Source of the DNA: Candidatus Staskawiczbacteria bacterium
Lineage (GTDB): Bacteria; Patescibacteriota; Minisyncoccia; Minisyncoccales; Staskawiczbacteraceae
Reading direction: 5' to 3'
Assembly: GCA_026395175.1 (NCBI GenBank)
Contig: JAPLZF010000019.1
Coordinates: forward strand, 3,115-67,114
Length of the DNA stretch: 64,000 nucleotides
The notes under the pieces were generated by a model. That model made no database searches, was not told the DNA's origin, and saw only the letters and a list, made by a program, of their open reading frames with translations. Positions 20,110-59,124 of this stretch are shown one piece after another. Every line of letters starts with the position of its first letter. The stretch's first letter is position 1. The translations under genes were made by a program, and so were the position numbers.

Positions 20110-20760
20110 TTATTTTAAAATTCTTCCTCGTAATTCTTTAGCTGTTTTTTCGAAAAATTCTTTAAGCTCATCAATTGTTATTTTTTTTATCATTCTTGGC
20201 AACGCTTCTATCCTCTTTACTTTTGCCAACTCCCCGCCAAGAAAAATATCTTCAATTTTAATGCCGAATTTAATCTCTGCATCTTCGCGTATTTCGTCCA
20301 AACTAAATTTACTGAGCAAAAAATAAATATCAACAAAATCTTTTGGATCAAATCGGTCAAGCAAAGTCATTAGTTTATTGGCCGCGATATCTCTTAAGCT
20401 GTCTGTTTTTATATTTTTCCATTCGGTTGGTTTTTCTAATTGCTTGAAAGGATATCTTGTAAATTCAACTTTTAATTCTTCTTTTCCAATTTCAAAATAA
20501 AACTGGCTTCTGTCATAAATTTTTTCATAATTAATTTCGTTTGCTCCGATTATGCCTTTCAGTTTTTCCGCAAAGCTATGCAAGAAAGCTCTGTCGGGCT
20601 CTTCAAAAATAAAAAAATCTAAATCATCAGAAAAACGATGCTGCAGATAGCAAACTGCCAGCGCCGTTCCGCCGGATAAATAAAAACCTTCTAAATTTGG
20701 TTCTTGCCCTACTGCGCTGATAACCTTTTCCTGAATATTTGTTAAAATTTCTTGTCCCAT
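20110..20760 (-). CDS. Nucleotidyltransferase AbiEii/AbiGii toxin-family protein
   Basis: 216-aa ORF; GGTALAVCYLQHRFSDDLDFF nucleotidyltransferase motif characteristic of AbiEii (type IV TA toxin). Confidence 0.75.
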   Translation of the reverse strand: MGQEILTNIQEKVISAVGQEPNLEGFYLSGGTALAVCYLQHRFSDDLDFFIFEEPDRAFLHSFAEKLKGIIGANEINYEKIYDRSQFYFEIGKEELKVEFTRYPFKQLEKPTEWKNIKTDSLRDIAANKLMTLLDRFDPKDFVDIYFLLSKFSLDEIREDAEIKFGIKIEDIFLGGELAKVKRIEALPRMIKKITIDELKEFFEKTAKELRGRILK

Positions 20761-20942
20761 AGAAGCAATTCCAAAAATGCCCGTCGATTTTCAGGAATTT
20801 TTAGTTTATGAATATACTTTTCTAAAAGCTCGCGGTCTATTTTTTCTTTGCCCAAGCCGAAATTGATAAGGCGTTCTAGCCCCCAAATTGGGTCTTTCTC
20901 CATTTGCTTTGCATATTCTCTTTTATTATAATCCCATGCCAT
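20742..20942 (-). CDS. Small hypothetical protein, possible partner of AbiEii-like gene
   Basis: 66-aa ORF overlapping the AbiEii-like start by 19 nt (translational coupling geometry); no recognisable AbiEi domain. Confidence 0.4.
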   Translation of the reverse strand: MAWDYNKREYAKQMEKDPIWGLERLINFGLGKEKIDRELLEKYIHKLKIPENRRAFLELLLWDKKF

Positions 20943-21046: not shown

Positions 21047-21514
21047 TTATGGACAAGCTCCTGTGGCGCAAGTCGCGCTAGCAGTTGCTGCCTCTACTTT
21101 TTTGCCGGAAGAATCAACGCAAAAACTTTTTGTTGCATCGTTTTTTAATACTACGCTGGCGCACCATTTAGTAGATGGGTCGGTGCATGTATTAGTGGCG
21201 CCTGAATCGCAGGCACAGGTCATGGTATATCCTGCGGCCGTTAAAGCTGTATTGATAGAGGCTCCGCCAGTTGTTGCTGTACAGAAGGTATTATACTTGC
21301 CGTTGTTCGCAGGGGTATCAATATATACAGTGCCCCTAGTCATCATACTTGCCAAATTACCTCTTGCTGCCGCGTCTTTGCCTTTGTTGATGTATTGGGT
21401 GACGTTAACCAACACAATGGCGGCTAATACCGCGATGATTGCGATAACGACGATTAATTCAATGATTGTAAAACCCTTCGATTGGCTCAGGGCTAAGCCT
21501 TTTGATTTATTCAT
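21047..21514 (-). CDS. Type IV major pilin paralog 1
   Basis: MNKSKGLALSQSKGFTIIELIVVIAIIAVLAAIVLVNVTQYINKGKDAA; Cys-rich variable C-terminus. Confidence 0.88.
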   Translation of the reverse strand: MNKSKGLALSQSKGFTIIELIVVIAIIAVLAAIVLVNVTQYINKGKDAAARGNLASMMTRGTVYIDTPANNGKYNTFCTATTGGASINTALTAAGYTMTCACDSGATNTCTDPSTKWCASVVLKNDATKSFCVDSSGKKVEAATASATCATGACP

Positions 21515-21558: not shown

Positions 21559-21605
21559 ATTATATTCTTTAACAAAATAGCAAGCAACATATAGGGTGTG
21601 GATAA
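21559..21605 (-). promoter_or_regulatory. Promoter of pilin paralog 1 with upstream TTATCCACA box
   Basis: minus strand TTATCCACA (21597..21605) - 9 nt - TTGCTT - 17 nt - TATAAT. Confidence 0.6.
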
Positions 21606-21678
21606 CTCAAAAAAAACAGAGCTCAATAAAGAACTCTGTTTTTAATTTTAATTTCGCAAAACAATTCTTGCTTTATAA

Positions 21679-22137
21679 TTACAAGCAAGTTCCTGTTGCA
21701 ACTAGACATGTCCCGCTAGCTTTACTCAACTTGTTTCCAGTAGAATCCACGCAATACGTGTTCGTGGACGATTTCAAGGTAACTTGCGCACACCAATTTG
21801 TAGATGGATCAGCACAAGCAGCAACATTGCAAGTGGCTGTAACTGTGTAACCAGCGGCAACTAATGCGTTATAAACAGAAACATAACCAGCTGCGCCAGT
21901 TCCAGTACCCGTAATAAAACCATTATAAGTGCCCGGTTTAGCATTGACGGGTGTAGTATCACCCGCAAACCATGTGGCTCCGTTTGTTATTAAAGAAGCC
22001 AAGTTGCCTTGTGCTGCTGCGTCTTTGCCTTTGTTGATGTAGCCGGTGACGTTAACCAACACAATGGCGGCTAATACCGCGATGATTGCGATAACGACGA
22101 TTAATTCAATAATTGTAAAACCTTTTGATTTATTCAT
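21679..22137 (-). CDS. Type IV major pilin paralog 2
   Basis: MNKSKGFTIIELIVVIAIIAVLAAIVLVNVTGYINKGKDAA; divergent C-terminus. Confidence 0.88.
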   Translation of the reverse strand: MNKSKGFTIIELIVVIAIIAVLAAIVLVNVTGYINKGKDAAAQGNLASLITNGATWFAGDTTPVNAKPGTYNGFITGTGTGAAGYVSVYNALVAAGYTVTATCNVAACADPSTNWCAQVTLKSSTNTYCVDSTGNKLSKASGTCLVATGTCL

Positions 22138-22179
22138 TTTGTTATTATTTTATTTTTTAAGCTCGACCTTTCTTAAATA

Positions 22180-22587
22180 TTATGGACAAACTGTGGCATC
22201 AAAATCGGCGCAAGCGGCAGTAACTGATTTCTTGGTTCCAGAACTGTCAACGCACCAATAATTTGCGGCTGTTGTAAGCAATTGAGAACAAGCGGCCCAT
22301 TCTGTAGCGCTTTCGACGCATACTTTGTCTGCTGTTGCTGATGGGTCTTGGTCAAAGATAGGTTTTCCGGCGGCAAAATTGGCAGCGCAGAATCCTGTGT
22401 AAGTATGATTTGTATCGTAGAATGTGGCTCCGTTTGTAAGCAAGGTTGCCATGTTTCCTTCTATTGCCGCGTCTTTGCCCTTGTTGATGTATTGGGTGAC
22501 ATTAACCAACACTATGGCGGCCAATACCGCGATAATTGCGATAACGACGATTAATTCAATAATTGTAAAACCTTTTGATTTATTCAT
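22180..22587 (-). CDS. Type IV major pilin paralog 3
   Basis: MNKSKGFTIIELIVVIAIIAVLAAIVLVNVTQYINKGKDAA; divergent C-terminus. Confidence 0.88.
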   Translation of the reverse strand: MNKSKGFTIIELIVVIAIIAVLAAIVLVNVTQYINKGKDAAIEGNMATLLTNGATFYDTNHTYTGFCAANFAAGKPIFDQDPSATADKVCVESATEWAACSQLLTTAANYWCVDSSGTKKSVTAACADFDATVCP

Positions 22588-22628
22588 TTTATTTTTTAAG
22601 TTTAAATTGTTTAATTTATTAGATTTTC

Positions 22629-22679
22629 TATACTTCGCCTTACGGCTCAGTATCTCGCCCCGTCAAACGGGACTCGACC
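22629..22679 (-). promoter_or_regulatory. Conserved two-hairpin 5' leader element, copy 1
   Basis: minus strand GGTCGAG-TCCCG-loop-CGGGG-CGAGATACTGAGCC-GTAA-GGCGAAGTAT; near-identical copy at 46751..46805 with compensatory stem changes. Confidence 0.5.
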
Positions 22680-22697
22680 TTTTTTATATTTTACTTC

Positions 22698-22743
22698 ATT
22701 TTACAGAATTAAAGATATTGACGCAATAGCAAGATGTGGATAA
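22698..22743 (-). promoter_or_regulatory. Promoter of pilin paralog 3 with upstream TTATCCACA box
   Basis: minus strand TTATCCACA (22735..22743) - 8 nt - TTGCGT - 17 nt - TAAAAT. Confidence 0.55.
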
Positions 22744-22805: not shown

Positions 22806-23279
22806 TTAATCAGGGCAGTGCGTTATATCCTCTCCGTCTGGACAAATGGTAATATCGCCAACGCAATGGTTATAGCATATTTCTTTTTTCATTCCCCTGC
22901 TGTCAACACAAAAAGCCAAATTCGGATTTGTAAATTCCCTGGCGCAGGCAGCCCATGCTTGGGAAATGGCGCCGCAACAAGCTCCGGTGGGATTCGAATT
23001 TTCGTCGTAGCATATAGTTGAAGGATTTGCCGGCGCTTGGGAAGCGATATTTGCAACAACAGGGGAAGTGCAAAAACTGACTCCTTCTTTGTTATAGCTG
23101 TTGCCGTTGTTGTTATAAAAAACTTCTCCGGCAGGAATTAAAATAGCCAAACTGCCGGAAACATTAGCGTCTTTACCCCTGCTGATGTATTGAGTAACCG
23201 AAAACAAAATAATTCCGGACAAAACAGCGGTTATCGCAATAACAACAACTAATTCTATAATTGTGAATCCTTTATCCAT
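22806..23279 (-). CDS. Type IV pilin paralog 4 (more divergent)
   Basis: start moved to MDKGFTIIELVVVIAITAVLSG (internal Met of the 172-aa track ORF, avoiding overlap with pilC); Cys-rich C-terminus. Confidence 0.8.
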   Translation of the reverse strand: MDKGFTIIELVVVIAITAVLSGIILFSVTQYISRGKDANVSGSLAILIPAGEVFYNNNGNSYNKEGVSFCTSPVVANIASQAPANPSTICYDENSNPTGACCGAISQAWAACAREFTNPNLAFCVDSRGMKKEICYNHCVGDITICPDGEDITHCPD

Positions 23280-23301
23280 AAATAATTTAAAATTTAAAAT
23301 T

Positions 23302-24510
23302 TTAGATGGTTCCCAAAGCTCCATACAACGGCTCTAAAATGGAAACCGCCACCAAAGCCACGCCTGCTCCTAAAAAAATTATCAGTATGGGCTCCAAAAG
23401 CGCTGTAAATGTTTCCACTGCTCTTTTTATTTCTTTATTGTAAAAATTAACTATCTCCATTAAATTCTTGTCCAACGTTCCTGTTTCTTCGCCAACTTGA
23501 ATCATCTGCACCACAAACGGCGGGGCATAATCGGGATATCTTACCAACACCGAGCTTATTTTTTCTCCTTGTGAAACTCTTTCTTCAGTTTCAGTCAGAA
23601 TTTTTTTATAAACAGAATTGCCCACCGTGTCTTTGGTGATTTTCAGCGCGTTGTTGATTGAAAGCCCGGCTCCCACTAAAGTGGAAACACTTTCGGCAAA
23701 CCTGACAAGAAATGTTTTTTTGAAAAATCCTCCTATAAACGGCACTTTTAAAGACCATTCATCATATCTTTTTTTGCCTTCTTTGGTTGTAAAATAATAA
23801 ATTATAAATCCGACCAAGATAAAAAATCCGACCAGCAAAATCCAGCCGTAATTCGCCAGAAAACCATAAAAGCTAATCATAAGCTGGGTAAATAACGGAG
23901 GCTTTGCCGTGGTCTGCTTCAATAAATCAACCAATTTAGGCATGACGAAAAATATGATAATTGGAACCACCACCAACAAAACCGATATGACGAAAATAGG
24001 ATAAATCATAGCTCCTTTTATTTGGGACGATATGTCCGATTCTCTTTCTAAATGGTCTGAAAGGAAATAAAGCGATTCGGAAATTTTTCCTGACGCCTCC
24101 CCTGTTTTTATCAAGCTGACGTAAAAAACATTGAAAACATCGGGAAATTCAGCGAATGCGTCCGACAGGGAATTCCCTTCTTCCACTAATTGGGAAATCT
24201 TTAAAATTTTTTCCTTAAAGTTCTGATTTTTTATTTGGAGAGCCAAACTTTTCAAACTCTGGGTAACAGGAACCCGCGACTGCACCATCACGGCCAATTG
24301 CCTGGAAAATATCGCCAAGTCTTTCTTGGAAACTTTGTTCAAAAATTCTATATTTCCAGTCTGAAAAATCAGAGGAGATTGCTCCTTTATAGATGTGACA
24401 AAAATATTATATTTTTGCAGAAGAAGGACTGCCGCTTCTTTGGAAGATGCCTCAACCGCGCCTGTTTCAATCTTGCCCTCCTTGGACCTGGCTTGATAAA
24501 AATATTTCAT
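23302..24510 (-). CDS. pilC: Type IV pilus platform protein PilC (T2SS F family)
   Basis: 402-aa ORF, duplicated T2SSF domains, three TM segments. Confidence 0.9.
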   Translation of the reverse strand: MKYFYQARSKEGKIETGAVEASSKEAAVLLLQKYNIFVTSIKEQSPLIFQTGNIEFLNKVSKKDLAIFSRQLAVMVQSRVPVTQSLKSLALQIKNQNFKEKILKISQLVEEGNSLSDAFAEFPDVFNVFYVSLIKTGEASGKISESLYFLSDHLERESDISSQIKGAMIYPIFVISVLLVVVPIIIFFVMPKLVDLLKQTTAKPPLFTQLMISFYGFLANYGWILLVGFFILVGFIIYYFTTKEGKKRYDEWSLKVPFIGGFFKKTFLVRFAESVSTLVGAGLSINNALKITKDTVGNSVYKKILTETEERVSQGEKISSVLVRYPDYAPPFVVQMIQVGEETGTLDKNLMEIVNFYNKEIKRAVETFTALLEPILIIFLGAGVALVAVSILEPLYGALGTI

Positions 24511-24517
24511 TTAAAAG

Positions 24518-25582
24518 TTATCGCAATAAGTTTCTTATTTCAGAAGGGTCCAGCGAGTAATCTGTCGCATTCTTCAAAGATATTTCTTTTTTCCTTACCA
24601 AGTCCACCATTGCCCTGTTGAAAGAAATCATTCCTTCTTTCGCCGATGTTTCTATGACAGCCGGAATTTCGTGTATTTTGTTTTCTCTTATCAGGTTGGA
24701 AATGGCATTATTGCAAATCAGCACTTCGCAGACAGGTATGAATCCTCCTTTAATTCTGGGAATCAATCTTTGAGAAATTATGCCCAAAAGAGAGCTCGAC
24801 AGCTGAAATCTTATTTGGCTCTGCTGGTCGGCCGGAAAAACATCAACTATTCTGTGGATTGTCTGGGCCGCTGAATTGGTGTGCAAAGTTGCAAAAACTA
24901 AATGTCCTGTTTCAGCCGCCGTAATTGTCGTGGCAATTGTTTCTAAATCCCTCATTTCGCCAACCATAATCACATCAGGATTTTGGCGCAGGCTGGCGCG
25001 CAAAGCATTGTTAAAATTCAAGGTGTCTGTTACAACCTCTCTTTGGTCGATAATCGCCCGGTCAATAGGATAAGTATATTCAATCGGGTCTTCAACCGTA
25101 ATTATATGAACCGACCTGGTATGATTTATTTCGTCTATCATTGCTGCCAAAGTGGTTGATTTTCCCTGGCTGGTGGCTCCAGTCACCAGAATAAGCCCTT
25201 GGGGACGCGATGTAAAATCGTGCAAAACCGGAGGAAGATTCAGCTCTTCTATTGTCCTTACTTTTGACGGGATAAAACGCAACGCCAAGCTGATTGAGCC
25301 CCTCTGGAAAAAAATATTGATTCTAAACCTGCCCCTATCTTCATACTGGTAAGAAAAATCAATTTCTTTGTCTTCTAAAAATTTCTTGCGCTGGACTTCC
25401 GACATTATGGAAAACGCCAATTCCTCGGAATCTTTTGCCATAATTATCTTTTCCTGGCTAAGGGGAATGAGCTGGCCGGTAATGCGTATATTGGGCGCAT
25501 GACCGACGGAAATATCCAAGTCAGAGGCTTCTTCTCTAACTGCTATGTCTAAAAGTTTTTTAAGATAATTTAAATAATCCAT
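24518..25582 (-). CDS. pilT: Twitching-motility retraction ATPase PilT
   Basis: 354-aa ORF; Walker A GATSQGKSTT, VGEMRD, HLVFATLHT motifs. Confidence 0.9.
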   Translation of the reverse strand: MDYLNYLKKLLDIAVREEASDLDISVGHAPNIRITGQLIPLSQEKIIMAKDSEELAFSIMSEVQRKKFLEDKEIDFSYQYEDRGRFRINIFFQRGSISLALRFIPSKVRTIEELNLPPVLHDFTSRPQGLILVTGATSQGKSTTLAAMIDEINHTRSVHIITVEDPIEYTYPIDRAIIDQREVVTDTLNFNNALRASLRQNPDVIMVGEMRDLETIATTITAAETGHLVFATLHTNSAAQTIHRIVDVFPADQQSQIRFQLSSSLLGIISQRLIPRIKGGFIPVCEVLICNNAISNLIRENKIHEIPAVIETSAKEGMISFNRAMVDLVRKKEISLKNATDYSLDPSEIRNLLR

Positions 25583-25609
25583 AACACAAAAATTTTAAAT
25601 TTTAAATTT

Positions 25610-27331
25610 TTATTTTTCTTCCGTTGCCCTGATAACTTCTTCAATTGTTGTCTGGCCGTTTAAAACTTTCAATATTCCTTCCTGCTCCATGGTAAGCATG
25701 CCTTGTTTCTGAGCCACCTTAAAAATCATGCTTTCCAAAAGGCTGGTTTGCATCAATTCAGCCAGCTCGTCTGACATCGATAAAACTTCAAAAAGTCCCA
25801 TTCTGCCTGAATATCCCAAAAATCCGCAAACTTCGCATCCCTTTGCCGCATATATAAACAATGGCTCTTCTATTTTCACCTCGCTTTTGGCTGAAGCCGG
25901 CATATTTTTTATTTTTTCCAAAATATAACTTTTTATTTTTTCCGAAGGCCTTACTTTTATTTTGCAATGCGGACATAAAACCCTAATTAATCTCTGAGAT
26001 ATGACAACTTTCAGGGTAGACGGAATCAAAAATGGCCTCACTCCCATATCTATCAATCTGGGAATCACGCCGACGGAAGAATTGGTGTGCAAAGTAGACA
26101 GCACAATGTGTCCGGTTAGAGCGGCGTTTATAACCAAGCTGGCTGTTTCTTCGTCTCTGACTTCTCCAACCATTATAATGTTCGGGTCCTGCCTTAAAAT
26201 TTGACGAAGTCCTCTGGCAAAAGTGTATCCTATTTCGGGCTTCACCTGCGACTGGTTGATGCCGGCGATGGAATATTCTATCGGGTCTTCAACCGTAACA
26301 ATGTTGACCGAGTCTTGGTTTAAAATGCGCAAGATGGCATACTGGGTTGTTGTTTTTCCAGAGCCGGTCGGACCGGTGAATAAAATCATTCCGTATGGCT
26401 TTTTTATCGCCGCTTTTACAACTTCCAGGCTTCTTCCCGTCATTCCCAAATCTTCAAAAGACCTCGCTCCAGTTGACGGATCTAACACTCTAATCTCAAC
26501 TTTTTCTCCGTAAAGAGTGGGAAATGTGGAAACCCTGAAATCAACGTCTGAATTATTTATTTTCACGGAAAATCTTCCATCCTGGGGCATTCTGTTTTCA
26601 TCTATTTTAAGCGCTGAAAGAATTTTAATCCTGGCAACAATGGCAGGGTGCACTTTCAAAGGCAAAGACAGGCTCAAATATAAAATTCCATTCAATCGGA
26701 ACCGCACATTCAATTTGTCCCTGCCCGGCTCTATGTGGATATCTGAGGCATTGCCTTCAAGAGCATGCCTCAAAATAACCAAAACCATTTTTATGATTGG
26801 CGCGTCTTCTGTTATTGTTTCGGCTGCAAATTTTTTCTTCGGCGCATCGAAAATTTTTCCGCTTTCTTCGCTCAGGCTTTCCAAAGCTTTTTTCGTCTCA
26901 GAAGATATATTTTTGCGCTGTTTTGAAAGATTTGCCAAGTTTCCCGGAGTTATCAGGCAGATTTGGTAAGTGAAATTTTCCTGATTTGCCAGAAATCTTA
27001 AAGCATTTTGGGCCGCTATATCTTCGGGATAAACCATTCCAATTAAAACAGATTTTCCGTCTTTTTCGACAGAAGCCATTTTATAATTGACAGACGCTTC
27101 TTCGGGTATCAATTCCAAAACATCAGAAGACACTTTCTCCGCATCAATTTTTTTTAAAGGAACGCCGGAAATTTTGCTCTTCAAACCGAAAAGAAAATCT
27201 TCGGAAACAATATTTTTAGATAAAATAATTTCTTCCTCGGTTTTACCGAGTTTTGCTGACTGCGTTTTCAAATCATTAAGCATTTTCTCAGTCAGGAATC
27301 CTTGTGCGAATAATTCTTGCAATAATTTCAT
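25610..27331 (-). CDS. pilB: Type IV pilus assembly ATPase PilB (GspE family)
   Basis: 573-aa ORF; Walker A GPTGSGKTTT, tetracysteine CPHC...CEVC, VGEVRD. Confidence 0.92.
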   Translation of the reverse strand: MKLLQELFAQGFLTEKMLNDLKTQSAKLGKTEEEIILSKNIVSEDFLFGLKSKISGVPLKKIDAEKVSSDVLELIPEEASVNYKMASVEKDGKSVLIGMVYPEDIAAQNALRFLANQENFTYQICLITPGNLANLSKQRKNISSETKKALESLSEESGKIFDAPKKKFAAETITEDAPIIKMVLVILRHALEGNASDIHIEPGRDKLNVRFRLNGILYLSLSLPLKVHPAIVARIKILSALKIDENRMPQDGRFSVKINNSDVDFRVSTFPTLYGEKVEIRVLDPSTGARSFEDLGMTGRSLEVVKAAIKKPYGMILFTGPTGSGKTTTQYAILRILNQDSVNIVTVEDPIEYSIAGINQSQVKPEIGYTFARGLRQILRQDPNIIMVGEVRDEETASLVINAALTGHIVLSTLHTNSSVGVIPRLIDMGVRPFLIPSTLKVVISQRLIRVLCPHCKIKVRPSEKIKSYILEKIKNMPASAKSEVKIEEPLFIYAAKGCEVCGFLGYSGRMGLFEVLSMSDELAELMQTSLLESMIFKVAQKQGMLTMEQEGILKVLNGQTTIEEVIRATEEK

Positions 27332-27356
27332 ATAAATTTTTTATTTTGCGCCGTAT

Positions 27357-27755
27357 TTATTGATAATATGGGATAAAAGGATTGTCTCTGCCGATTTGCA
27401 CTTCCTCCAATTTAGACACGGTCAAGCCCATGTCTTGCAGAATTTTTTGGGCTTCTTCTTTCGAAACAGCAGATATAAAACCTGTTTCTATCTGGCGGTC
27501 GCTGGTAGAAGCCGTATAGGTATATTGCGTTTGCATCGGAGAAAATGTTTGGAGATTTTTGAATTGCTCCGAATCAAAAATACCCATATCAACGTTGACT
27601 TTCGGCTTGTTGAAAACCAAGGATGAGGAAACTTCTTTTGGCTCGGACAAAAAAACTCCAAGAGAAACAATAGTTAAAAACAGCAGGAAAACTATTGTAA
27701 TTCCCATAAAAAATACTTTTTGCCGTTTTTTTGGTGATATGAATACTACTGCCAT
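27357..27755 (-). CDS. Hypothetical membrane-anchored protein in pilus cluster
   Basis: 132-aa ORF with one N-terminal TM helix, position between pilO-like and pilB. Confidence 0.45.
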   Translation of the reverse strand: MAVVFISPKKRQKVFFMGITIVFLLFLTIVSLGVFLSEPKEVSSSLVFNKPKVNVDMGIFDSEQFKNLQTFSPMQTQYTYTASTSDRQIETGFISAVSKEEAQKILQDMGLTVSKLEEVQIGRDNPFIPYYQ

Positions 27756-27757
27756 AA

Positions 27758-28300
27758 TTAGTAGGAATGTGTTTTTATTTGCAAACTGAAATTATACGGC
27801 GGACCTGATTCAGAGCCGAAAGAAATGCTGGTAACTTCAAAAATACGCGATGAATTTTCCAATGAAACGATGAAATTTTCCAATGACTCATAATCTCCCG
27901 ACAGGCTCATTGAAAAAAATATGTCTTTAATATTATTGCCGGCAGTGCCGGCATTGGCATTTACGCCAATCAAGGAAGATTTGGACAAAAATAAATTTTT
28001 GACTATAAGCCCGTTTTCGTTGGCTGTTTCCTGGAGAAAATAAATAGTATTGCCCAAATCGGCGTTTTTCGGCAGGGCATCATCAATTTTCTGGACATCA
28101 TCCTGGCGACTCTGCAGGTCAAAATAAGTTTTAGTTATGGCTGCGTAGTAATCAAATTCCGCGTTAAACTCCGCTTTTTTTTCGCCAAATTCTGTCCGCA
28201 ATTGTTTAAATGTATTATATTCCGGCACTGCCAAAAAGAATATCAACAATAAAATGATGAAAAAAGTTACGGCTATGGCAATGGGACGGTCTATTTGCAT
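27758..28300 (-). CDS. PilO-like pilus alignment protein
   Basis: 180-aa ORF; N-terminal TM helix then coiled-coil-like segment, synteny after pilM/pilN-like. Confidence 0.55.
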   Translation of the reverse strand: MQIDRPIAIAVTFFIILLLIFFLAVPEYNTFKQLRTEFGEKKAEFNAEFDYYAAITKTYFDLQSRQDDVQKIDDALPKNADLGNTIYFLQETANENGLIVKNLFLSKSSLIGVNANAGTAGNNIKDIFFSMSLSGDYESLENFIVSLENSSRIFEVTSISFGSESGPPYNFSLQIKTHSY

Positions 28301-28313
28301 TGAATAAATTATT

Positions 28314-28913
28314 TTATTGCGCCGGCAGTTGGTCTGACGGCGTCGTGGTTTCCAAAATTGGAAGCGTATCAGAAATGTAATCGAATATATTCTGGTTCAA
28401 CACAAGGTCTATGTTGAAAGATATTCTTGCAGATTCTCCCAGTGTAGAATTCAGGGTTCCTATGCTCTTGATATATTTTTTATTGCCTTCATTTTCAAAT
28501 ATTGCCACTTGCCTGGAAAAAGAATCCATGTCGTCAGCCTCGCCGGATAATTGCACAGCACTATTTTTTTCATCCAGGCTAAACTGCTTAAACCAGACAT
28601 TCTGCATAGTCTGCTTTTGCGCAAAAACAAACACATTTGAGGCAAATTCATGATTTTTAAACAGCTCGGAAAAATCATTAATCTTATTCCGGTAATCAAT
28701 GACATTTTTTTCATATTCATTCTGCTGGTAAGTTCCCACTGTCTGCAGAGCTAAAGTTTCTTTTTTTATATCTTCTCTCTGCAAATTGTTCTTAATCAGA
28801 AAAATAAGATAGCAAAGCACGGTGGCTATCAGCAAAGATATCACAAAATAAAATATCACATCCATCCACCAGAATTTTTTATTTCTTAATTGGAATATTG
28901 CAGAAAAATCCAT
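28314..28913 (-). CDS. PilN-like pilus alignment protein
   Basis: 199-aa ORF; single TM helix, synteny immediately after pilM. Confidence 0.5.
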   Translation of the reverse strand: MDFSAIFQLRNKKFWWMDVIFYFVISLLIATVLCYLIFLIKNNLQREDIKKETLALQTVGTYQQNEYEKNVIDYRNKINDFSELFKNHEFASNVFVFAQKQTMQNVWFKQFSLDEKNSAVQLSGEADDMDSFSRQVAIFENEGNKKYIKSIGTLNSTLGESARISFNIDLVLNQNIFDYISDTLPILETTTPSDQLPAQ

Positions 28914-28952
28914 CTTATTATTATATTATACAACAAATTAAATTATAACGCA

Positions 28953-30068
28953 TTATGTTTCCAATCCTCCCAACGCGACTCCCGTTGCCACAGAAAAACT
29001 TGGCGCCATTTTTTCAAGATTTTGTTCCAATATGGGAGGGTATAAAAGTTCGGAAAAGCAATTGGGAATTTCAACTTTCTTTTTTAAAACCTCTGCAAAA
29101 TATTCTTTAAGCCCGGGCAGGCTGGACGTTCCGCCGGTCAGATAAATTACATCTGCTTCTTTACCCTCCTGCTGATAAAAATCAGATAATATTTTTTTCA
29201 CTTCAATTATCAAAGGGTCAATCAGCAGATACAGCGTTTTGGAAATTTCTTCTTTTGAAGAAACCAGCCCTTCTTTATTTTTCAATTCTTCGGCTTCAAC
29301 ATGGCCCAAACCCAAAGCCGAAGATATGTTATAAGTGAGTTGTCTGCCGGCAAAATTAAAGCTATAGCTTTTTTTCAGGCTTTTTTTGTCAATCATACTG
29401 ATAGTCGTGCTTTGGACTCCTATGTCTATCAAGCAAACGCAATTTTTGTTTTCTCTAACCAAAGATCTCACCAGCCCCATTGTTTCAGCTTCAACGGCAT
29501 AAAGCTCCACGCCGGCCAATTGGGCGACTTTCTGATAATCCTGTATAATCTGATTCGGAATGGCAACTAAAAATATTTTCAAAGCCGATTGCTTTTCGCC
29601 GGGAGTTCCTCCTATCAATTTCCAATCCAAAGTTGTTTCTGTTATTGGCAAAGGAATATATTGTGAAGCATTGTAATAAACTGCTTCTTTTAATTCATTG
29701 GCGCCCATGGGCGGCAATTCAAAAGATGTGCAGAAAGTCGAAAAATCAGGAATTGAAAATATGACTGCTTTTGTTTTTATCCTTGCCTCGTCTAAAATTG
29801 CCCTTATTGCCCTGGAAACAAAATAATTGGAAAGCAGATAGCTTCCTTTTTCAATATTACGGAACGGCTCTTTATAAAGAGAGCTTGACTTTATTTCTCC
29901 GTAGTTTTCCAATGCTTTTCCCTGACCCCACCTTGATAATTCAACAACTTTGATTGACGAAGTGCCAACATCGATTCCCACCATTTTTTTAGGAAAAAAC
30001 ATTTTCAAAGGATTGGAAAAAATATTCAACTTTTCTATATTAAAATTTTCCAAAGGATTTGGACTCAT
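28953..30068 (-). CDS. pilM: Type IV pilus assembly protein PilM (actin-like ATPase fold)
   Basis: 371-aa ORF; GIDVGTSSIKVVEL phosphate-1 motif, LTGGTSSLPGL. Confidence 0.85.
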   Translation of the reverse strand: MSPNPLENFNIEKLNIFSNPLKMFFPKKMVGIDVGTSSIKVVELSRWGQGKALENYGEIKSSSLYKEPFRNIEKGSYLLSNYFVSRAIRAILDEARIKTKAVIFSIPDFSTFCTSFELPPMGANELKEAVYYNASQYIPLPITETTLDWKLIGGTPGEKQSALKIFLVAIPNQIIQDYQKVAQLAGVELYAVEAETMGLVRSLVRENKNCVCLIDIGVQSTTISMIDKKSLKKSYSFNFAGRQLTYNISSALGLGHVEAEELKNKEGLVSSKEEISKTLYLLIDPLIIEVKKILSDFYQQEGKEADVIYLTGGTSSLPGLKEYFAEVLKKKVEIPNCFSELLYPPILEQNLEKMAPSFSVATGVALGGLET

Positions 30069-30078
30069 AATTGATTTT

Positions 30079-30116
30079 ATTATACAATAAAATCAATAAA
30101 ACAACCCTGTGGATAA
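30079..30116 (-). promoter_or_regulatory. pilM upstream region with TTATCCACA box and TATAAT
   Basis: minus strand TTATCCACA (30108..30116) ... TATAAT (30079..30084) 10 nt before the pilM ATG; -35 not convincing. Confidence 0.4.
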
Positions 30117-30867: not shown

Positions 30868-31236
30868 TTACTTCAGCAAGGTTTTTACTTTTTCAACAAT
30901 TTCTTCCGGAGTCAGCTGGGCTTTTACCAGAAAATCTGCGGCTCCCAACTTCAACCCTTTGCTGATTTCCTCCTGCTGTCCAAGGTTAGACAAAATAATA
31001 ACAGGAATCGAGCCTGTTTCGCTGTCTGCTTTTATTTTTGACAAAACCTCAAAGCCGTCCATAGTCGGCAAAACTAAGTCAAGCAAAATTAAATCTGGCA
31101 TTATTTTTTTTGCTTCTTTAACGCCGTCTGCGCCGTCGACTGCCAAAGAAACATCAAATCCTTCCGACGACATTTTTTTGCTTATCAGCTGCCTCAAAAA
31201 GATATCGTCTTCCACAATTAAAATTTTTTTTGCCAT
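30868..31236 (-). CDS. Stand-alone response-regulator receiver domain (CheY/PilH-like)
   Basis: 122-aa ORF; ILIVEDD, phospho-acceptor LILLDLVLP, conserved K in FLVKAQL. Confidence 0.85.
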   Translation of the reverse strand: MAKKILIVEDDIFLRQLISKKMSSEGFDVSLAVDGADGVKEAKKIMPDLILLDLVLPTMDGFEVLSKIKADSETGSIPVIILSNLGQQEEISKGLKLGAADFLVKAQLTPEEIVEKVKTLLK

Positions 31237-32511: not shown

Positions 32512-33285
32512 TTATGCCAAGACTGTATTTATAATTTGCAAAATATCATGTTTATGACTATCAGATAAAATGCCAAACATTTTTAGCATTTCTAGAAATA
32601 CTTTAATGTTATTTTCCGTTATTTCAAAATGGGCAATTTCTTTTGTTTCGGCGGTTCGCCCGATTAAACTAGTTATAGCTTTTAGCTCTGTAATCGGGAA
32701 ACATAAATATAACATCGGCTGTGTACCAACTGCATATTGTTTTTCGGTAATTTTTATCTCAGTAACTATTTCATATCCATTAAATTTATGGATTAAAAGT
32801 GGATATTTAACTTGAGTATATTCAAAATCAAATCCATTTATATTTTTTTCTATTGGGTGGCTGCGATCAATTTGCAACTCAGAATTGTTAGCAATCAAAT
32901 CGTGGCTTTGTATTGAATTAAGATAAGTGATAACACCTTCTAATTCTTCTCTCGACACTATGTTCCATTTATAAAAATACCAAATATACTCCGATAATTC
33001 ATAAAGCGCTTTAATTTTTCCATTTGCGCCAGTGAATTCGGTTTCTGGCAATGATGACTCTGCGAGTTTTTCGATTTCCTTTTTAACAACGTCATAACCG
33101 ATTTGCCATTCAACATAATTACTCAAAGCAAATCCGTCGCGTTTAACAGCTACGGGCGTTCCATATTCATTTACAATCGAACGATTTTTAACGCGAATTT
33201 TTCCGCTGACAGCGGTTAATAAAATTGGCACTTCAATTTTATGTTCCTGCTCGTTAACTAAAATTTTTGGCATATTTTTCTCCAA
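32512..33285 (-). CDS. Hypothetical protein, candidate cognate restriction endonuclease
   Basis: 257-aa ORF directly downstream of and overlapping the methyltransferase gene; no motif recognised, call rests on position only. Confidence 0.3.
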   Translation of the reverse strand: MEKNMPKILVNEQEHKIEVPILLTAVSGKIRVKNRSIVNEYGTPVAVKRDGFALSNYVEWQIGYDVVKKEIEKLAESSLPETEFTGANGKIKALYELSEYIWYFYKWNIVSREELEGVITYLNSIQSHDLIANNSELQIDRSHPIEKNINGFDFEYTQVKYPLLIHKFNGYEIVTEIKITEKQYAVGTQPMLYLCFPITELKAITSLIGRTAETKEIAHFEITENNIKVFLEMLKMFGILSDSHKHDILQIINTVLA

Positions 33286-34426
33286 ATTTAGCTCCTAATA
33301 ATTCTTTAAAATAATTTTCTATTTTTAGTTTAGCATTAGGAATTTCTCTAAATTTAAATTTATTTTTTAAAATAGGATTTGTGTGAACGCTCTGAGCAAT
33401 AAAACATTCTTTTATCTCATTAAATTTTTTATTATCAATTATCACATCACAATTTCCGATAAAATACGGCATCTTATCTGCGTATTGTTTAAAGACATCA
33501 ATATAACAATAGTATGGGAGCTTTTCCATAAATATATAAACAGTGTTATAAGTATCAGAATCGATAAAAGTACGATTACGTTTAAGCGCATTTATATCCC
33601 TTAAAGTCCAAAACTTTGCCACTGGTTTGTCATTTTTATTTAAATATTTTTTATTTGGATATTTTTGAACATAATGAACTATTGTGTCAAAATCTTTTAA
33701 ACGAAAAAGTCCGTCATCTTTTACTCTAAATTGATAATCTTGAATATAATCATAAGTCATCCCATCTTGATCTCTTTTATAAAGAGATATTAAGATGGGA
33801 AAAGCCATTCCGCGAGAAGTATCAGAAAATTCATGACTGCTTATTATTAATCCGTCAATTAATTTATAGTTTTCGGCAAATTTTGAGAGCAAAGCAAAAT
33901 TCGCTTTCTTTATTAGATAGGACAGCGGATGCAAAACACAAACGTAATCCGCTTGAAGTTTATTGTAAGAAAGCAAAAAAGACATCCCTAAATCTCTGGT
34001 TTTTATATCCGGGTCAATTTTATCTTGAACGGAAGCATCTTTTATAGAATTGCGGATTATAGAAGTTGTATCATTATACGGCGGATTACCTATGACTATA
34101 AGTTTTTCATTATTTCCAATCGTCAAGTTTTTCCGAAAAACACTTAAGAGTGAATTTTGATAAATAAAATCTACATCATCGATTCTTTTTTTTGCTTCAG
34201 AGATAGCTTTCTCATCGATATCAGCGCCGATCAATCTTTTTGCAATATTTTTTTTTGTTAAAAATGAACCATAGCCACAAGACGAATCTAAAATTGTAAA
34301 ATCTTTGATACTTTGAATGTTTTTTTGCAAAATAGAATAAGCCAAATCAACAATAACCTCCGGCGTATAATAAGAGCCAAGATTAACCGTGTCCGTATGA
34401 TTTAAATGTTCCTGATTTCTATTCAT
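33254..34426 (-). CDS. N6-adenine DNA methyltransferase (gamma-class, TaqI/Eco57I-like)
   Basis: 390-aa ORF; motif I LDSSCGYGSFL and motif IV VIGNPPYN. Confidence 0.85.
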   Translation of the reverse strand: MNRNQEHLNHTDTVNLGSYYTPEVIVDLAYSILQKNIQSIKDFTILDSSCGYGSFLTKKNIAKRLIGADIDEKAISEAKKRIDDVDFIYQNSLLSVFRKNLTIGNNEKLIVIGNPPYNDTTSIIRNSIKDASVQDKIDPDIKTRDLGMSFLLSYNKLQADYVCVLHPLSYLIKKANFALLSKFAENYKLIDGLIISSHEFSDTSRGMAFPILISLYKRDQDGMTYDYIQDYQFRVKDDGLFRLKDFDTIVHYVQKYPNKKYLNKNDKPVAKFWTLRDINALKRNRTFIDSDTYNTVYIFMEKLPYYCYIDVFKQYADKMPYFIGNCDVIIDNKKFNEIKECFIAQSVHTNPILKNKFKFREIPNAKLKIENYFKELLGAKFGEKYAKNFS

Positions 34427-34656: not shown

Positions 34657-35352
34657 ATGCGAGGAAAAAGTTATTCAGCGGGAGACAAAGAAAAAGTTAA
34701 AAGATTAATATTGAGTGGCAAAAGTTATAATGAAATAACCAAAATTTTGGGTACACCTAAAAGCACAATCAGCGTTTGGTTTGGAAAGACATTGAAAAAA
34801 CCTGTAAGTCGTAGGGCGATGCTTAATCATTTAAAAGAGGCTCGTAAGATTGCTGTAACAAAATTAAAAATTAAATGGGATAAAATTAGAAATGACGAAA
34901 ATAAATTAATATCAGAAATAGTTGAAAAAGAATTGCCTACCTACCCTTTGGACAATATCGGATTTTACAAAGCCATGCTTTCAATGCTATATTGGGCAGA
35001 GGGAGCAAAACGTAAGGGTATGTCCGGTATGAAATTAGCAAATAGCGATCCTAAACTAATAAAATTATTTATAGCATTAATGAGAAAATGTTATAATATA
35101 GATGAAAGAAAATTTAAGGTAGGATTATATTTACATTACTATCATTCGATTAAAAAGGTAAAAAATTTCTGGTCTGACTTGTTGGGCATTCCCCTATCTC
35201 AATTTCACAAAGTTTATATTAAAAAAAGAAGCAAAACAAAAAGATACAGAAAAAATTTTGTTGGCGTCTGTTTTTTATATTATTCAGATAATAAGATAAG
35301 AAAAGAGTTATTAGAATTGGGAAACCAGTTACAAATGTATTTTTCAAAATAA
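34657..35352 (+). CDS. HTH plus LAGLIDADG-like domain protein, paralog 1
   Basis: 231-aa ORF; N-terminal HTH-like GKSYNEITKILGTPKSTISVW; MLYWAEGAK...LANSDPKLIKLF resembling a LAGLIDADG helix plus following strand; paralogs at 59193 and 61755. Confidence 0.45.
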   Translation: MRGKSYSAGDKEKVKRLILSGKSYNEITKILGTPKSTISVWFGKTLKKPVSRRAMLNHLKEARKIAVTKLKIKWDKIRNDENKLISEIVEKELPTYPLDNIGFYKAMLSMLYWAEGAKRKGMSGMKLANSDPKLIKLFIALMRKCYNIDERKFKVGLYLHYYHSIKKVKNFWSDLLGIPLSQFHKVYIKKRSKTKRYRKNFVGVCFLYYSDNKIRKELLELGNQLQMYFSK

Positions 35353-45315: not shown

Positions 45316-45624
45316 TTAGAGAGAAGCAGGAATACCGAATGTGGTTCTCACAAGCGAGATGGCAACGCCAGACAATACTATTAACAATGTTCCAATAACA
45401 GCTGCTATCAAGGCCTTTTTGGCAGTTCCCGTTTTTTCTGGGCTACCGGCTGAAGTAAGATATAAAATTCCGGCAATAACCCAGCCAACAACTATAAGTG
45501 GCACGCCTACATTAACGACAGCCGTTTGAACCGAGCCTGCTATACTCCCGACATCTGCTGCATATGCGAAGCCAGGCAATACTAAAATTCCTAATAATAC
45601 TAAAAATAGCGTTTTCTTATTCAT
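45316..45624 (-). CDS. VirB2/TrbC-like (T4SS-pilin-like) small membrane protein, paralog a
   Basis: signal peptide MNKKTLFLVLLGILVLPGFAYA then two TM helices joined by LTSAGSPEKTGTAKKA loop. Confidence 0.6.
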   Translation of the reverse strand: MNKKTLFLVLLGILVLPGFAYAADVGSIAGSVQTAVVNVGVPLIVVGWVIAGILYLTSAGSPEKTGTAKKALIAAVIGTLLIVLSGVAISLVRTTFGIPASL

Positions 45625-45649
45625 ATATTTTTATCTATAAAATTATACA

Positions 45650-45997
45650 TTAAAGACCGAAAGAATTTGCCACAAATGACATGGCCCCATTAGCTAAAAT
45701 AATTAAAATTGTGCCTCCTATTGCCGAAAACAGAGCTATTTTAGCAGAATTTAATTTACTAGGGTCTCCTTGGGCTATCAAAAACAGAATGCCTGTCATA
45801 ACCCACATAATGACAACTATCCAAGTACCCACAATAACAACCACTCCCGCGATAGCTTGAGCCATACCTCCAACAGTTGCTCCACCGCCCCCGCTCCCAC
45901 CGCCGGAACAGGGAACATCACCGCATGGTCCTGCCAATGCTAAAGTAGGTGAAGCTAAAACAACCAATAAAATTAAAAATAATATTTTTTTATTCAT
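45650..45997 (-). CDS. VirB2/TrbC-like small membrane protein, paralog b (Gly-rich insert)
   Basis: same architecture; loop IAQGDPSKLNSAKIA. Confidence 0.55.
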   Translation of the reverse strand: MNKKILFLILLVVLASPTLALAGPCGDVPCSGGGSGGGGATVGGMAQAIAGVVVIVGTWIVVIMWVMTGILFLIAQGDPSKLNSAKIALFSAIGGTILIILANGAMSFVANSFGL

Positions 45998-46008
45998 ATT
46001 CTTATTTT

Positions 46009-46311
46009 CTAAGTTAATGCGGTAGTTACGATATTAATTATTGAAAAAGCTAATATAGCAACTATTATTCCTGCTATTCCCCATATTAAAGATGCTCTTG
46101 CTGTGCCAAGTTTTTCTGGAGCTCCTCCGGCAGTTAAAAACATAATACCAGCTATTATAAAACAAATAACGGCAATGCCTGTAAATACTACCCAAACAAC
46201 GTTTGCAACTGCCACGCTCAATGTTTGTATACTGTTAACCAAAGCGTGTGCTGTAATTGGCAATGTAAAAACCACTGCCAAAAGAACCAAAAATGCTGTT
46301 TTTTTATTCAT
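46009..46311 (-). CDS. VirB2/TrbC-like small membrane protein, paralog c
   Basis: same architecture; loop LTAGGAPEKLGTARAS. Confidence 0.6.
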   Translation of the reverse strand: MNKKTAFLVLLAVVFTLPITAHALVNSIQTLSVAVANVVWVVFTGIAVICFIIAGIMFLTAGGAPEKLGTARASLIWGIAGIIVAILAFSIINIVTTALT

Positions 46312-46372
46312 AAACAGGATTTTAGTTTTGCTCCGCCCGAAAGCGGAGCAAAACTAAATATATATGATTTGC

Positions 46373-46705
46373 CTAAACATGCATAGCTGTACCCACTATC
46401 GCAAGTATCGAATAAGCAAGAATACCAACTACTATACCTGCTATTCCCCAAATCGCGGCTGTCCTCGCTGTTGCAACTTTTTCTGGAGCTCCTCCTGCTG
46501 TTAAAAACAAAATACCGGCTACCACAAAAGAGATTACAGCTATTGCCCCGAATATCATCCATACAAAAGTTTCAATAGATGTTATTAAATTACCTATATT
46601 TCCAATTCCTCCCACTGTTGGGGGTGTATTTGCATCTAGAGCAAATACCACAACTGGCAAAAGCAAAGCGCCGAGTGAAGCTAAAGTTATTTTAATTTTT
46701 TTCAT
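46373..46705 (-). CDS. VirB2/TrbC-like small membrane protein, paralog d
   Basis: same architecture; loop LTAGGAPEKVATARTA. Confidence 0.6.
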   Translation of the reverse strand: MKKIKITLASLGALLLPVVVFALDANTPPTVGGIGNIGNLITSIETFVWMIFGAIAVISFVVAGILFLTAGGAPEKVATARTAAIWGIAGIVVGILAYSILAIVGTAMHV

Positions 46706-46750
46706 TTTTTTATTTATTTAATTTTTTTAATCATCATTAATCATTGAATC

Positions 46751-46805
46751 GATACTTCGCCCTGAGGCTCAGTATCTCGACCCCGCTCATGCGGAGTTCT
46801 CGACC
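46751..46805 (-). promoter_or_regulatory. Conserved two-hairpin leader element, copy 2
   Basis: minus strand GGTCGAG-AACTCCGC-atga-GCGGGGT-CGAGATACTGAGCC-TCAG-GGCGAAGTATC. Confidence 0.5.
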
Positions 46806-46816
46806 TTTATAAATTT

Positions 46817-47194
46817 TTAAAAGAAATTTTTGAAATAAGTTAATGCTGCGCTTGCCCCAGGTTGTGCTTGCACACCAATAATTCCTTGTATAATTCCAAC
46901 TATTGTTTTTGCCGCTAACCCTATGGCTATTCCAATTATAGCATATACTAAAGCTTTTTTGGCTGTGCCCATTCTTTCAGGACTGCCTGCTGAAGTAAGA
47001 TACAGAATTCCTGCAACCACAATCATCATACCTCCCAAAACTGCGATAAGGTCTCCAACTGCACCGGCAATGCCCAAAAGAAGAGCGGAAAAGTCATTAT
47101 ATTTTAATGGATTTGTTAAACCTTGAGCTGAAACAAAGCTTGCCAAGCAGAATAAATCTACAAATACGACTAAAAAAATTATTTTTTTATTCAT
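46817..47194 (-). CDS. VirB2/TrbC-like small membrane protein, paralog e
   Basis: start moved to MNKKIIFLVV because TATAAT overlaps the track start; loop LTSAGSPERMGTAKKA. Confidence 0.6.
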   Translation of the reverse strand: MNKKIIFLVVFVDLFCLASFVSAQGLTNPLKYNDFSALLLGIAGAVGDLIAVLGGMMIVVAGILYLTSAGSPERMGTAKKALVYAIIGIAIGLAAKTIVGIIQGIIGVQAQPGASAALTYFKNFF

Positions 47195-47201
47195 TAAAGT
47201 C

Positions 47202-47249
47202 ATTATACAACTTTACACAAAATATATGCAACACTCTGCTTGTGGATAA
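47202..47249 (-). promoter_or_regulatory. Promoter of the VirB2-like gene array with upstream TTATCCACA box
   Basis: minus strand TTATCCACA (47241..47249) - 9 nt - TTGCAT - 18 nt - TATAAT, then 7 nt to ATG (near-leaderless geometry). Confidence 0.55.
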
Positions 47250-50691: not shown

Positions 50692-51063
50692 TTAAACTAA
50701 TTTGTTTATTTTTAACTCTTTTAACAAACCTGCCATTTTTTCTTTTAGTTCTGGAATATCTTCTTTTATAGTTTTCCAAACCACTTTTATATTTACTCCA
50801 AAATATTCGTGTATCAATTTATTCCTCATCCCCTTTACCTTTGCCCACTTTATTTCGCTGTTTATTTTTTTTATTGATGTGGGAACATTTTTTGTTGCTT
50901 CTCCAATAATTTCTATTGCGCGGACAACTGCATAAATCGTTTTTTTGTCGTTTTGGAACTCTTCAAAACTAAAACCTTCAACAAATTTTTCTATCTCTTC
51001 TATTGAATTATAGATATCTAGAATATAATCCTTATATTCTCTCTTCGACGAATTCTTTTTCAT
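50692..51063 (-). CDS. hepT: HepT-like (DUF86) ribonuclease toxin
   Basis: 123-aa ORF; RNKLIHEY = Rx4HxY motif. Confidence 0.8.
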   Translation of the reverse strand: MKKNSSKREYKDYILDIYNSIEEIEKFVEGFSFEEFQNDKKTIYAVVRAIEIIGEATKNVPTSIKKINSEIKWAKVKGMRNKLIHEYFGVNIKVVWKTIKEDIPELKEKMAGLLKELKINKLV

Positions 51064-51362
51064 ATATAAATTACTTCTTCTAAAATATGCTTTCCAATGT
51101 ATGGCTTCAGAGAATCTTTCATCACCAAATCAATTTTAGTTCCCAAAAGTTTTTTCAAATAATCCTCCAAATCCATAAGTTTAAAAAGGCTTGGCTCATC
51201 AATAAACTCAACCAAGATATCAATATCGCTTCCTTTCCTTTGTTCGCCACGTGAATACGAACCAAAAACGCCGATTTTTTTTACCAAAAATTGTTCTTTC
51301 AAAAATTGCTCGGAATTCTTCAATTCTTCTTTTACATTTTTAAGTTTCGCCAAATTTTTCAT
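51060..51362 (-). CDS. mntA: MntA-like nucleotidyltransferase antitoxin
   Basis: 100-aa ORF; GVFGSYSRGEQRKGSDIDILV (GSx10DxD) motif; 4-nt overlap with hepT. Confidence 0.8.
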   Translation of the reverse strand: MKNLAKLKNVKEELKNSEQFLKEQFLVKKIGVFGSYSRGEQRKGSDIDILVEFIDEPSLFKLMDLEDYLKKLLGTKIDLVMKDSLKPYIGKHILEEVIYI

Positions 51363-52199: not shown

Positions 52200-52249
52200 T
52201 TTTTTTATTTTATTTATTATATTATTTATTATACCAAAAATAATTAAAA

Positions 52250-52275
52250 GGTGGGATGTCGGACGTCCCACCGAC
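52250..52275. repeat. GC-rich palindrome family 1 copy upstream of the RAYT gene
   Basis: GGTGGGATGTCGGACGTCCCACCGAC, 51 nt upstream of the ATG. Confidence 0.9.
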
Positions 52276-52297
52276 TCGCTAAACTGTTTTCTGCAAA

Positions 52298-52330
52298 AAA
52301 AATCCCCACCTATGCTAGCGTGGGGCCTTG
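52298..52330 (-). terminator. Hairpin CCCCAC-loop-GTGGGG plus T-run after the 52357.. gene
   Basis: minus strand GGCCCCACGCTAGCATAGGTGGGGATTTTTTTT. Confidence 0.6.
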
Positions 52331-52356
52331 CCTGAAAAAACGGAAAGTGAGCGTTG

Positions 52357-59111: not shown

Positions 59112-59124
59112 AAAAGCAAAAAGT

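Follow-up and report, generated by a model that had tools for sequence, protein, structure and literature searches.

Background

[quoted passage not shown] This consensus is said to stem from work of Schaper and Messer in 1995, and the E. coli form of it tolerates changes at position 5 and A or T at position 3, but not changes at position 9. DnaA is known both as an activator and as a repressor, it stabilises RNA polymerase at high-affinity boxes such as those of nrdAB, and genes for nucleotide supply are under its control (PMC8203912). DnaA regulons have a link to DNA-precursor supply (PMC8203912). The putative targets described here are pilus and pilin genes, and a review of the DnaA regulon published in 2021 makes no mention of pili or competence genes (PMC8203912). 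The promoters described here also differ from the known DnaA promoters in having one box, with strict orientation and helical phasing, and in belonging to a CPR lineage.

Several other systems offer partial parallels. CRP-type regulators act from class I and class II sites, at about -41.5 and farther upstream in register, and the present promoters likewise show two positions one helical turn apart on the RNA polymerase face, the proximal class having no -35 hexamer; CRP-type sites, however, are dyads of about 22 bp for dimers, whereas the element found here is an asymmetric single 9-mer. The 0A box of Spo0A in Bacillus (TGTCGAA) is a short asymmetric response-regulator box located near or upstream of the -35 hexamer, similar to the DnaA box when that is read as its reverse complement, TGTGNATAA, and at oriC the two kinds of box overlap. 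Its sequence is not identical to that of the present element, and a Spo0A-type output domain was not found in the window, whose sole response regulator is receiver-only. In Pseudomonas, control of pilA by PilS-PilR and sigma-54 also bears on type IV pilin expression, with -24/-12 elements as against the sigma-70-like -35/-10 elements seen here. The DUS and USS of Neisseria and Haemophilus serve in DNA uptake and occur genome-wide at about one copy per kb, in contrast to the few promoters that carry the 9-mer here.

CPR bacteria (Patescibacteria) are mostly uncultured, with genomes of about 0.7 Mb and few transcription factors, and to our knowledge almost nothing is known about their gene regulation. 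Full-text searches rendered no literature linking the DnaA box to pili or to the CPR, and a CPR pilus preprint of 2026 deals with a different, chaperone-usher-like pilus. Promoter-proximal operators and DnaA as a transcription factor are familiar subjects; the novelty here lies in the regulon, in the lineage concerned and in an architecture of single boxes locked in phase.

Results and discussion

An exact 9-mer at pilus and pilin promoters

The DNA analysed, here called the window, is a stretch of 64 kb from a Staskawiczbacteria genome; its PilM protein shows 100% identity to a PilM annotated from Candidatus Staskawiczbacteria. The initial annotation had reported in it four exact copies of TTATCCACA on the minus strand, each oriented with a downstream minus-strand unit, and had considered this number unlikely by chance. 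A count over the window rendered the same four positions (boxes 1 to 4, Table 1), co-oriented with the downstream unit in every case, against a chance expectation of 0.53; the maximum in 100 dinucleotide-preserving shuffles of the window was 3, none of them (0/100) reaching 4. One-mismatch variants were not enriched (20 observed in the window versus 16.3 expected), and the excess is therefore confined to the perfect match. Each of the four exact copies lies between genes, which is true of no other ATCCACA-containing site of the window.

Three of the boxes had been described as lying 8-9 nt upstream of a TTGNNN hexamer that is followed at 17-18 nt by TATAAT or TAAAAT, and the minus-strand sequence bears this out: box 1 is followed by 9 nt, TTGCTT, 17 nt and TATAAT; box 2 by 8 nt, TTGCGT, 17 nt and TAAAAT; and box 4 by 9 nt, TTGCAT, 18 nt and TATAAT. 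Box 3 does precede pilM, as annotated and as the Pfam match to PilM confirms, with a geometry unlike that of the other three, since a TATAAT hexamer (30084-30079) follows it after 23 nt and a credible -35 hexamer is absent. A generic sigma-70 scan of the window did not report the TTGCNT hexamers of the box promoters, because only 3-4 of their 6 positions match TTGACA. At box 1, an alternative promoter (TTGTTA-18-TATAAT) is located 13 nt downstream of TTGCTT-17-TATAAT, and the exact promoter there is therefore ambiguous. This box lies 6 nt past the T-tract of an intrinsic terminator (hairpin at 21612-21643), which makes the pilin gene downstream of it a separate transcription unit.

Pfam matches agree with the assignment of the downstream units to type IV pilins (N_methyl) and to a VirB2-like array (T4SS_pilin/TrbC-like). 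The pilin gene at 21679-22137, next after the pilin gene of box 2, is without a box of its own. In the pilM operon, whose genes are separated by gaps of at most 39 nt, matches to PilM_2, PilO, T2SSE (twice), T2SSF and N_methyl were found; pilM occupies 28953-30068, the ORF in the pilN position has no Pfam assignment, and a divergent ComF-like gene adjoins pilM. The first ATG of the leading VirB2-like ORF (47203) overlaps the -10 hexamer. The true start is probably the ATG at 47194, 8 nt past this hexamer, to judge from the sequence, and the mRNA would then be leaderless; the NCBI product P0121 has 125 aa, versus 128 aa for the ORF. The distance from the -10 hexamer to the start codon is of only 8-10 nt both at pilM (30079-30068, minus strand) and at the first VirB2-like pilin gene (47207-47192, minus strand), which argues for leaderless or nearly leaderless mRNAs. 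The box is absent from the promoter of the prepilin-peptidase/minor-pilin operon (start at 20041), which would thus lie outside the regulon. Within the pilus cluster, Pfam revealed no transcription factor equipped to bind DNA, and the response regulator next to the cluster (30868-31236) is receiver-only.

Table 1. Positions of the boxes, promoters, genes and leader elements in the window
Feature	Coordinates	Strand	Basis or remark
Box 1, TTATCCACA	21597-21605	-	Exact match; predicted operator, promoter of pilin gene 21047-21514
Box 2, TTATCCACA	22735-22743	-	Exact match; predicted operator, promoter of major-like pilin gene 22180-22587
Box 3, TTATCCACA	30108-30116	-	Exact match; predicted operator of the pilM operon promoter
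Box 4, TTATCCACA	47241-47249	-	Exact match; predicted operator at the promoter of the VirB2-like array, which follows gyrA directly
Sigma-70-type promoter (TTGCTT 21587-21582, TATAAT 21564-21559)	21559-21587	-	Sequence read
Promoter (TTGCGT 22726-22721, TAAAAT 22703-22698)	22698-22726	-	Sequence read
Promoter (TTGCAT 47231-47226, TATAAT 47207-47202)	47202-47231	-	Sequence read
Type IV pilin paralog, 155 aa	21047-21514	-	Pfam N_methyl, E=6.6e-07
Type IV pilin, 135 aa	22180-22587	-	Pfam N_methyl, E=5e-09
pilM operon (pilM, ORF 28314-28913, pilO, 132-aa ORF, pilB, pilT, pilC, pilin)	22806-30068	-	
Five T4SS_pilin/TrbC (VirB2)-like genes	45316-47194 (ORF to 47203)	-	Pfam PF18895, PF04956
AAAGGTCG leader element, followed by two GC hairpins	22675-22682	-	
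Further AAAGGTCG copies	22164-22171, 46801-46808	-	
Box-like TTATCCACT (8/9)	59124-59132	+	22 nt upstream of TAAAAT
Box-like TTATGCACA	61690-61698	+	Abuts TTGACT-16 nt-TATAAT

Conservation and specificity of the box

The orthologous pilM loci sampled comprised 31 from species-representative genomes and 80 from metagenomes, the latter with PilM identities of 61-90%. The window PilM has hundreds of metagenome relatives at 78-91% identity, and the profile-based scan of metagenomes rendered only relatives at least 61% identical, which is the range that the conservation of the box covers. In 97 of the 101 non-redundant orthologous loci, down to a PilM identity of 61%, the pilM promoter carries TTAT[C/T/A]CACA, as TTATCCACA in 75 upstream regions, TTATTCACA in 21 and TTATACACA in one, so position 5 is the only freely varying one (C 75, T 21, A 1). 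Two other loci (2/101) differ at one further position (TTACTCACA and ATATTCACA), and two (L116 and L120) have lost the box. With regard to the flanks, position -1 is A in about 73%, a G at +1 is partly conserved within the pilM class alone, and the bases of the spacer vary. The flanking bases differ between promoter classes, and the common core is the 9-mer with a weak purine-A preference upstream.

A box was found before 25 of 98 type IV pilin genes, typically at one or two stand-alone pilin genes per locus; most species keep it at stand-alone pilin genes with a promoter of their own, and the arrangement box-8/9 nt-(cta)TTGCNT-17 nt-TAAAAT recurs in many species, with a box that is degenerate or missing in a few. 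For the VirB2-like array, whose synteny with gyrA is conserved among orthologous loci, 5 of 6 other independent loci carry the box (L032/33, L034/35, L036-38, L039 and L043/44) and L041/42 does not; it reads TTATTCACA in L036-38 and, overlapping the -35 hexamer, TTATTCACT in L043/44. Conservation in orthologous promoters therefore extends to the three kinds of units, and the cis element that the initial annotation had proposed as common to type IV pilus and VirB2-like pilin promoters is borne out by the comparison of orthologous loci. On the basis of these comparisons, TTATCCACA is a predicted promoter element conserved in more than 100 genomes of related uncultured Staskawiczbacteria, members of the CPR, and one regulator appears to control both the type IV pilus and the VirB2-like pilin systems.

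It could have been that the 9-mer is equally frequent at other intergenic or coding positions. This is not so in the 1.41 Mb of Staskawiczbacteria DNA searched, a sample centred on pilus, gyrA and ftsH regions, in which exact boxes away from PilM, type IV pilin and VirB2-like pilin genes are few and mostly located within ORFs, with a frequency of about chance that is similar to that of permuted control 9-mers.

In two of the loci, the conserved pilM promoter and the pilM start codon are separated by an inserted MITE-like sequence (L002:9746-10000 and L023:1337-1657), about 200-280 bp in size and bounded by long terminal inverted repeats.

Geometry of the box promoters

Measured from the end of the box, the distances at which the -10 hexamer follows fall into two classes, 21-25 nt (n=98) and 31-34 nt (n=44), which are one helical turn apart with almost no intermediates (26-30 nt, n=6). 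Within the pilM lineage, the spacing is of 23 nt (±1) in the shallow clades and of 33-34 nt in part of the deepest clade. Boxes of pilM, pilin and VirB2-like promoters are all co-oriented with the gene; inversion was encountered only in an additional copy next to the pilin box of L020 and at the HTH site of L129. Second boxes are rare, amounting to a handful of 143 promoters, and the few two-box promoters (L026:2845-2871, L004:17964-17989, L020:14887-14911) show either a tandem with starts 17-18 nt apart or two boxes in inverted orientation at a distance of 7 nt. Additional weak boxes that would accompany the strong one in an 11-bp register were looked for, and no enrichment was found.

With two spacings that differ by one turn, the bound factor would have to keep to the same side of the helix with respect to RNA polymerase, and an asymmetric single 9-mer implies a monomeric binder. 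From the phased geometry we infer activation by direct contact with RNA polymerase, though this geometry would also be compatible with repression. The box is thus probably, as far as its arrangement indicates, the operator of an asymmetric, monomer-type protein that would contact RNA polymerase as an activator. In Staskawiczbacteria, TTATCCACA would then serve as the operator for a small group of genes, a 'filament regulon' made up of the pilM-pilC assembly operon, the stand-alone pilin genes with a promoter of their own and the VirB2-like array, and a single box would be occupied by one such protein with its orientation and helix face fixed. In one class of promoters, exemplified by pilM with no -35 hexamer, the box would lie at about -44 to -36, overlapping or replacing the -35 region; in the other, that of the pilin and VirB2-like promoters, it would lie at about -54 to -45, with 8-9 nt between it and the TTGCNT -35 hexamer that follows. 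In both, the bound protein would recruit or stabilise RNA polymerase and so activate transcription.

That the box is read by RNA polymerase itself, be it by the alpha C-terminal domain, as an UP-like element, or by an alternative sigma factor, as its -35 element, seems very improbable in spite of its location within the -36 to -54 zone, of the 4/6 positions that its last six bases (TCCACA) share with TTGACA, and of the TATnTT-like words found 16-18 nt downstream of the window boxes. A sigma factor tolerates about 1-2 nt of spacing variation, whereas the distance from box to -10 hexamer is bimodal (21-25 and 31-34 nt), and a separate TTGCNT -35 hexamer, 17-18 nt from the -10, is present at the pilin and VirB2-like promoters; an alternative-sigma -35 element paired with TATnTT as the -10 was rejected on these grounds. 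UP elements are degenerate A/T tracts contacted at -40 to -60 by the alpha C-terminal domain, unlike the box, which is an invariant 9-mer of mixed composition with four G/C bases and no A/T tract, and the 'UP-like module' that the initial annotation had allowed for was accordingly given up. A role outside transcription (pilin recombination or phase variation, an uptake sequence, DnaA titration) or a mere chance cluster is scarcely credible. Direct repeats flank the tandem pilin paralogs and the genes involved are DNA-uptake genes, as such roles might require, but the box is phase-locked to the -10 hexamer, more than 100 genomes keep it at the single-copy promoters of pilM and of the unit next to gyrA, and there is no recombinase gene nearby, which led us to discard a recombination site; its occurrence at about chance outside pilus promoters, rather than genome-wide, likewise led us to discard an uptake sequence. 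Chance is excluded by the shuffles and by the conservation at pilM.

Box-like sites upstream of HTH/LAGLIDADG-like genes

A copy matching 8/9 positions had been annotated at 59125, before an HTH/LAGLIDADG-like gene. The copy exists, with the coordinate corrected to that given in Table 1, on the plus strand; it reads TTATCCACT and is located between tRNA-Ile(TAT) and the gene at 59184-59879. A second box-like site, TTATGCACA, comes after tRNA-Phe and before a degenerate paralog of the same gene, and both sites are at the 22-nt spacing. The box of the HTH gene is kept in orthologs 85% and 78% identical, inverted at 65% and absent at 59%. Both sites are regarded as possible weak members of the regulon.

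The HTH/LAGLIDADG-like family, of about 230 aa, is represented in the window by 59184-59879, 34657-35352 and 61755-62292 (all on the plus strand), each adjoining a tRNA gene. Its members have an HTH at the N-terminus, together with a long helix and an alpha/beta domain of LAGLIDADG-like type; the third copy is degenerate. The paralogs share 35% identity, and the family, located between ftsH and rluD/rplS, is widespread and conserved among Patescibacteria. An AlphaFold model of the 59184-59879 protein (pLDDT 92.6) shows the N-terminal HTH followed by an alpha-beta-beta-alpha-beta-beta-alpha domain, for which Foldseek rendered weak matches to I-DmoI, and a PDB sequence search with the protein gave no match.

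Nature of the binding protein

The protein bound to the box would most likely be DnaA, the replication initiator serving as a transcription factor, which would tie the production of filaments for DNA uptake and attachment to replication status in an organism presumed incapable of de novo nucleotide synthesis. We give a probability of about 0.5 to this explanation, a 'filament regulon' with DnaA as its most likely binder; for the occupancy of the box as such, DnaA is the best candidate, at roughly even odds. That the DnaA of a CPR lineage has been co-opted as a master activator of the pilus machinery, the major pilins and the VirB2-like arrays, by way of one consensus box in helical register with RNA polymerase, is conceivable, with the odds slightly against it. 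The conserved core is a strong DnaA box both in sequence and in boundaries, and TTATNCACA is matched by 97/101 orthologous pilM sites, 75 of them being exactly TTATCCACA. At pilM, the confinement of the variation to position 5, the N of TTATNCACA, would favour recognition of the DnaA type, and T at position 9, found at some other sites, speaks against it. A site that is asymmetric and single is also what a monomeric contact of the domain-IV type would lead one to expect. Such an identity is subject to selection bias, as the motif was flagged precisely for equalling the DnaA box.

Box clustering is not a defining feature of E. coli high-affinity DnaA sites. For DnaA of B. subtilis, the density of boxes nearby matters to stable binding in addition to their affinity (PMC2533591); clustering of this kind is not observed here, where boxes are almost always single. 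No dnaA gene was found with Pfam in the window (about 70 ORFs), nor with a DnaA-signature regular expression in a six-frame translation of 0.68 Mb of loci. From the physiological side, CPR bacteria are without nucleotide synthesis, and their Com system and type IV pilus have been proposed to serve in nucleotide acquisition (PMC10187176). The finding that comEC is dispensable for growth in a Saccharibacterium (PMC10187176) weakens the rationale of nucleotide scavenging.

It can also be the case that the box is the operator of a dedicated, lineage-specific factor and that its identity with the DnaA box is a coincidence or mimicry, a reading that we consider somewhat less probable but a rival of weight; tentative candidates are a response regulator with an output domain encoded elsewhere and the HTH and LAGLIDADG-like protein 59184-59879, of which only the latter was seen. 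Ordinary activators typically have one site, placed as the box is here, whereas B. subtilis DnaA needs box clusters to bind stably (PMC2533591), and A-to-T changes at position 9 are present in several of the pilin and HTH sites, TTATCCACT-type variants that fit DnaA less well. The box of the HTH gene, at 22-nt spacing in the window and in the 85% and 78% identical orthologs, is as expected of autoregulation, and the modelled protein would be a plausible asymmetric sequence-specific DNA binder. This box is, on the other hand, lost or inverted in distant orthologs while that of pilM persists, and no dedicated factor is encoded near the pilus genes. Moreover, the core matches the DnaA 9-mer together with its N position, which would be a coincidence of about 1 in 100,000 before selection bias, and a perfect DnaA box would be occupied by canonical DnaA anyway.

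Whichever protein is the binder, the box offers a clean, testable definition of a regulon from sequence alone, it connects the type IV pilus with the VirB2-like pilin arrays, whose function is obscure, and it may be useful for promoter prediction and for the design of expression tools in CPR bacteria. Should DnaA be the binder, replication control would be connected to DNA uptake and host attachment in presumed nucleotide scavengers, and no cis-regulatory regulon would have been defined earlier in CPR bacteria of the Parcubacteria type.

A second motif common to both pilin classes

The word AAAGGTCG(A) is located on the sense strand of type IV pilin leaders in many loci (for instance at L034:4574 and L039:5337). 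As many as 55 of its 80 non-redundant occurrences lie at most 260 nt upstream of a pilin ATG, versus 0-5 for control words. Just past the leading gene of the VirB2-like array it is present as well, both in the window and in all of the other arrays (6/6). Its presence in both pilin classes provides independent support for their co-regulation, probably at the RNA level, and AAAGGTCG is, from its placement, a candidate signal for RNA processing, stability or the binding of a regulator. The core of the motif is unstructured, GC-rich double hairpins often being inserted just downstream, and a search of Rfam identified no known RNA family in the pilin leader.

The leaders at 22620-22683 and 46745-46806 (both on the minus strand) are alike, with the succession GGTCGAG, hairpin, CGAGATACTGAGCC, loop and GGCGAAGTAT, and with compensatory changes in the stem. 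The paired hairpins of other species resemble REP-type insertions at the GGTCG site.

Other features of the window

REP-like repeats are present in the window as GGGACGTCCGAC-type palindromes (8 copies) and as GGCTCGAGCCAAAAAA (6 copies), and an IS200/Y1-transposase-like gene at 51465-52430 (minus strand) is possibly REP-associated. The cumulative GC skew has its minimum at about 53.5 kb (53300-53730), at a switch of gene orientation in the divergent region between the gyrA side and rpsA. No cluster of DnaA boxes was found at this turn in the window or in four orthologous loci, and the region is probably not oriC. The rpsA leader contains a hairpin (ACTGCTG, a variable loop and CAGCAG, at 53500-53560 on the plus strand) that is found in five genomes (the window, L125, L041, L043 and L126) and is possibly an S1 autoregulatory structure.

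Defence and addiction modules are interleaved with core genes in the window. They include an AbiEii toxin with a small ORF between the pilin genes and pilD (20110-20942), an R.Pab1-like restriction enzyme with an N6 methylase (32512-34426) and a HepT/MNT pair (50692-51362), all on the minus strand.
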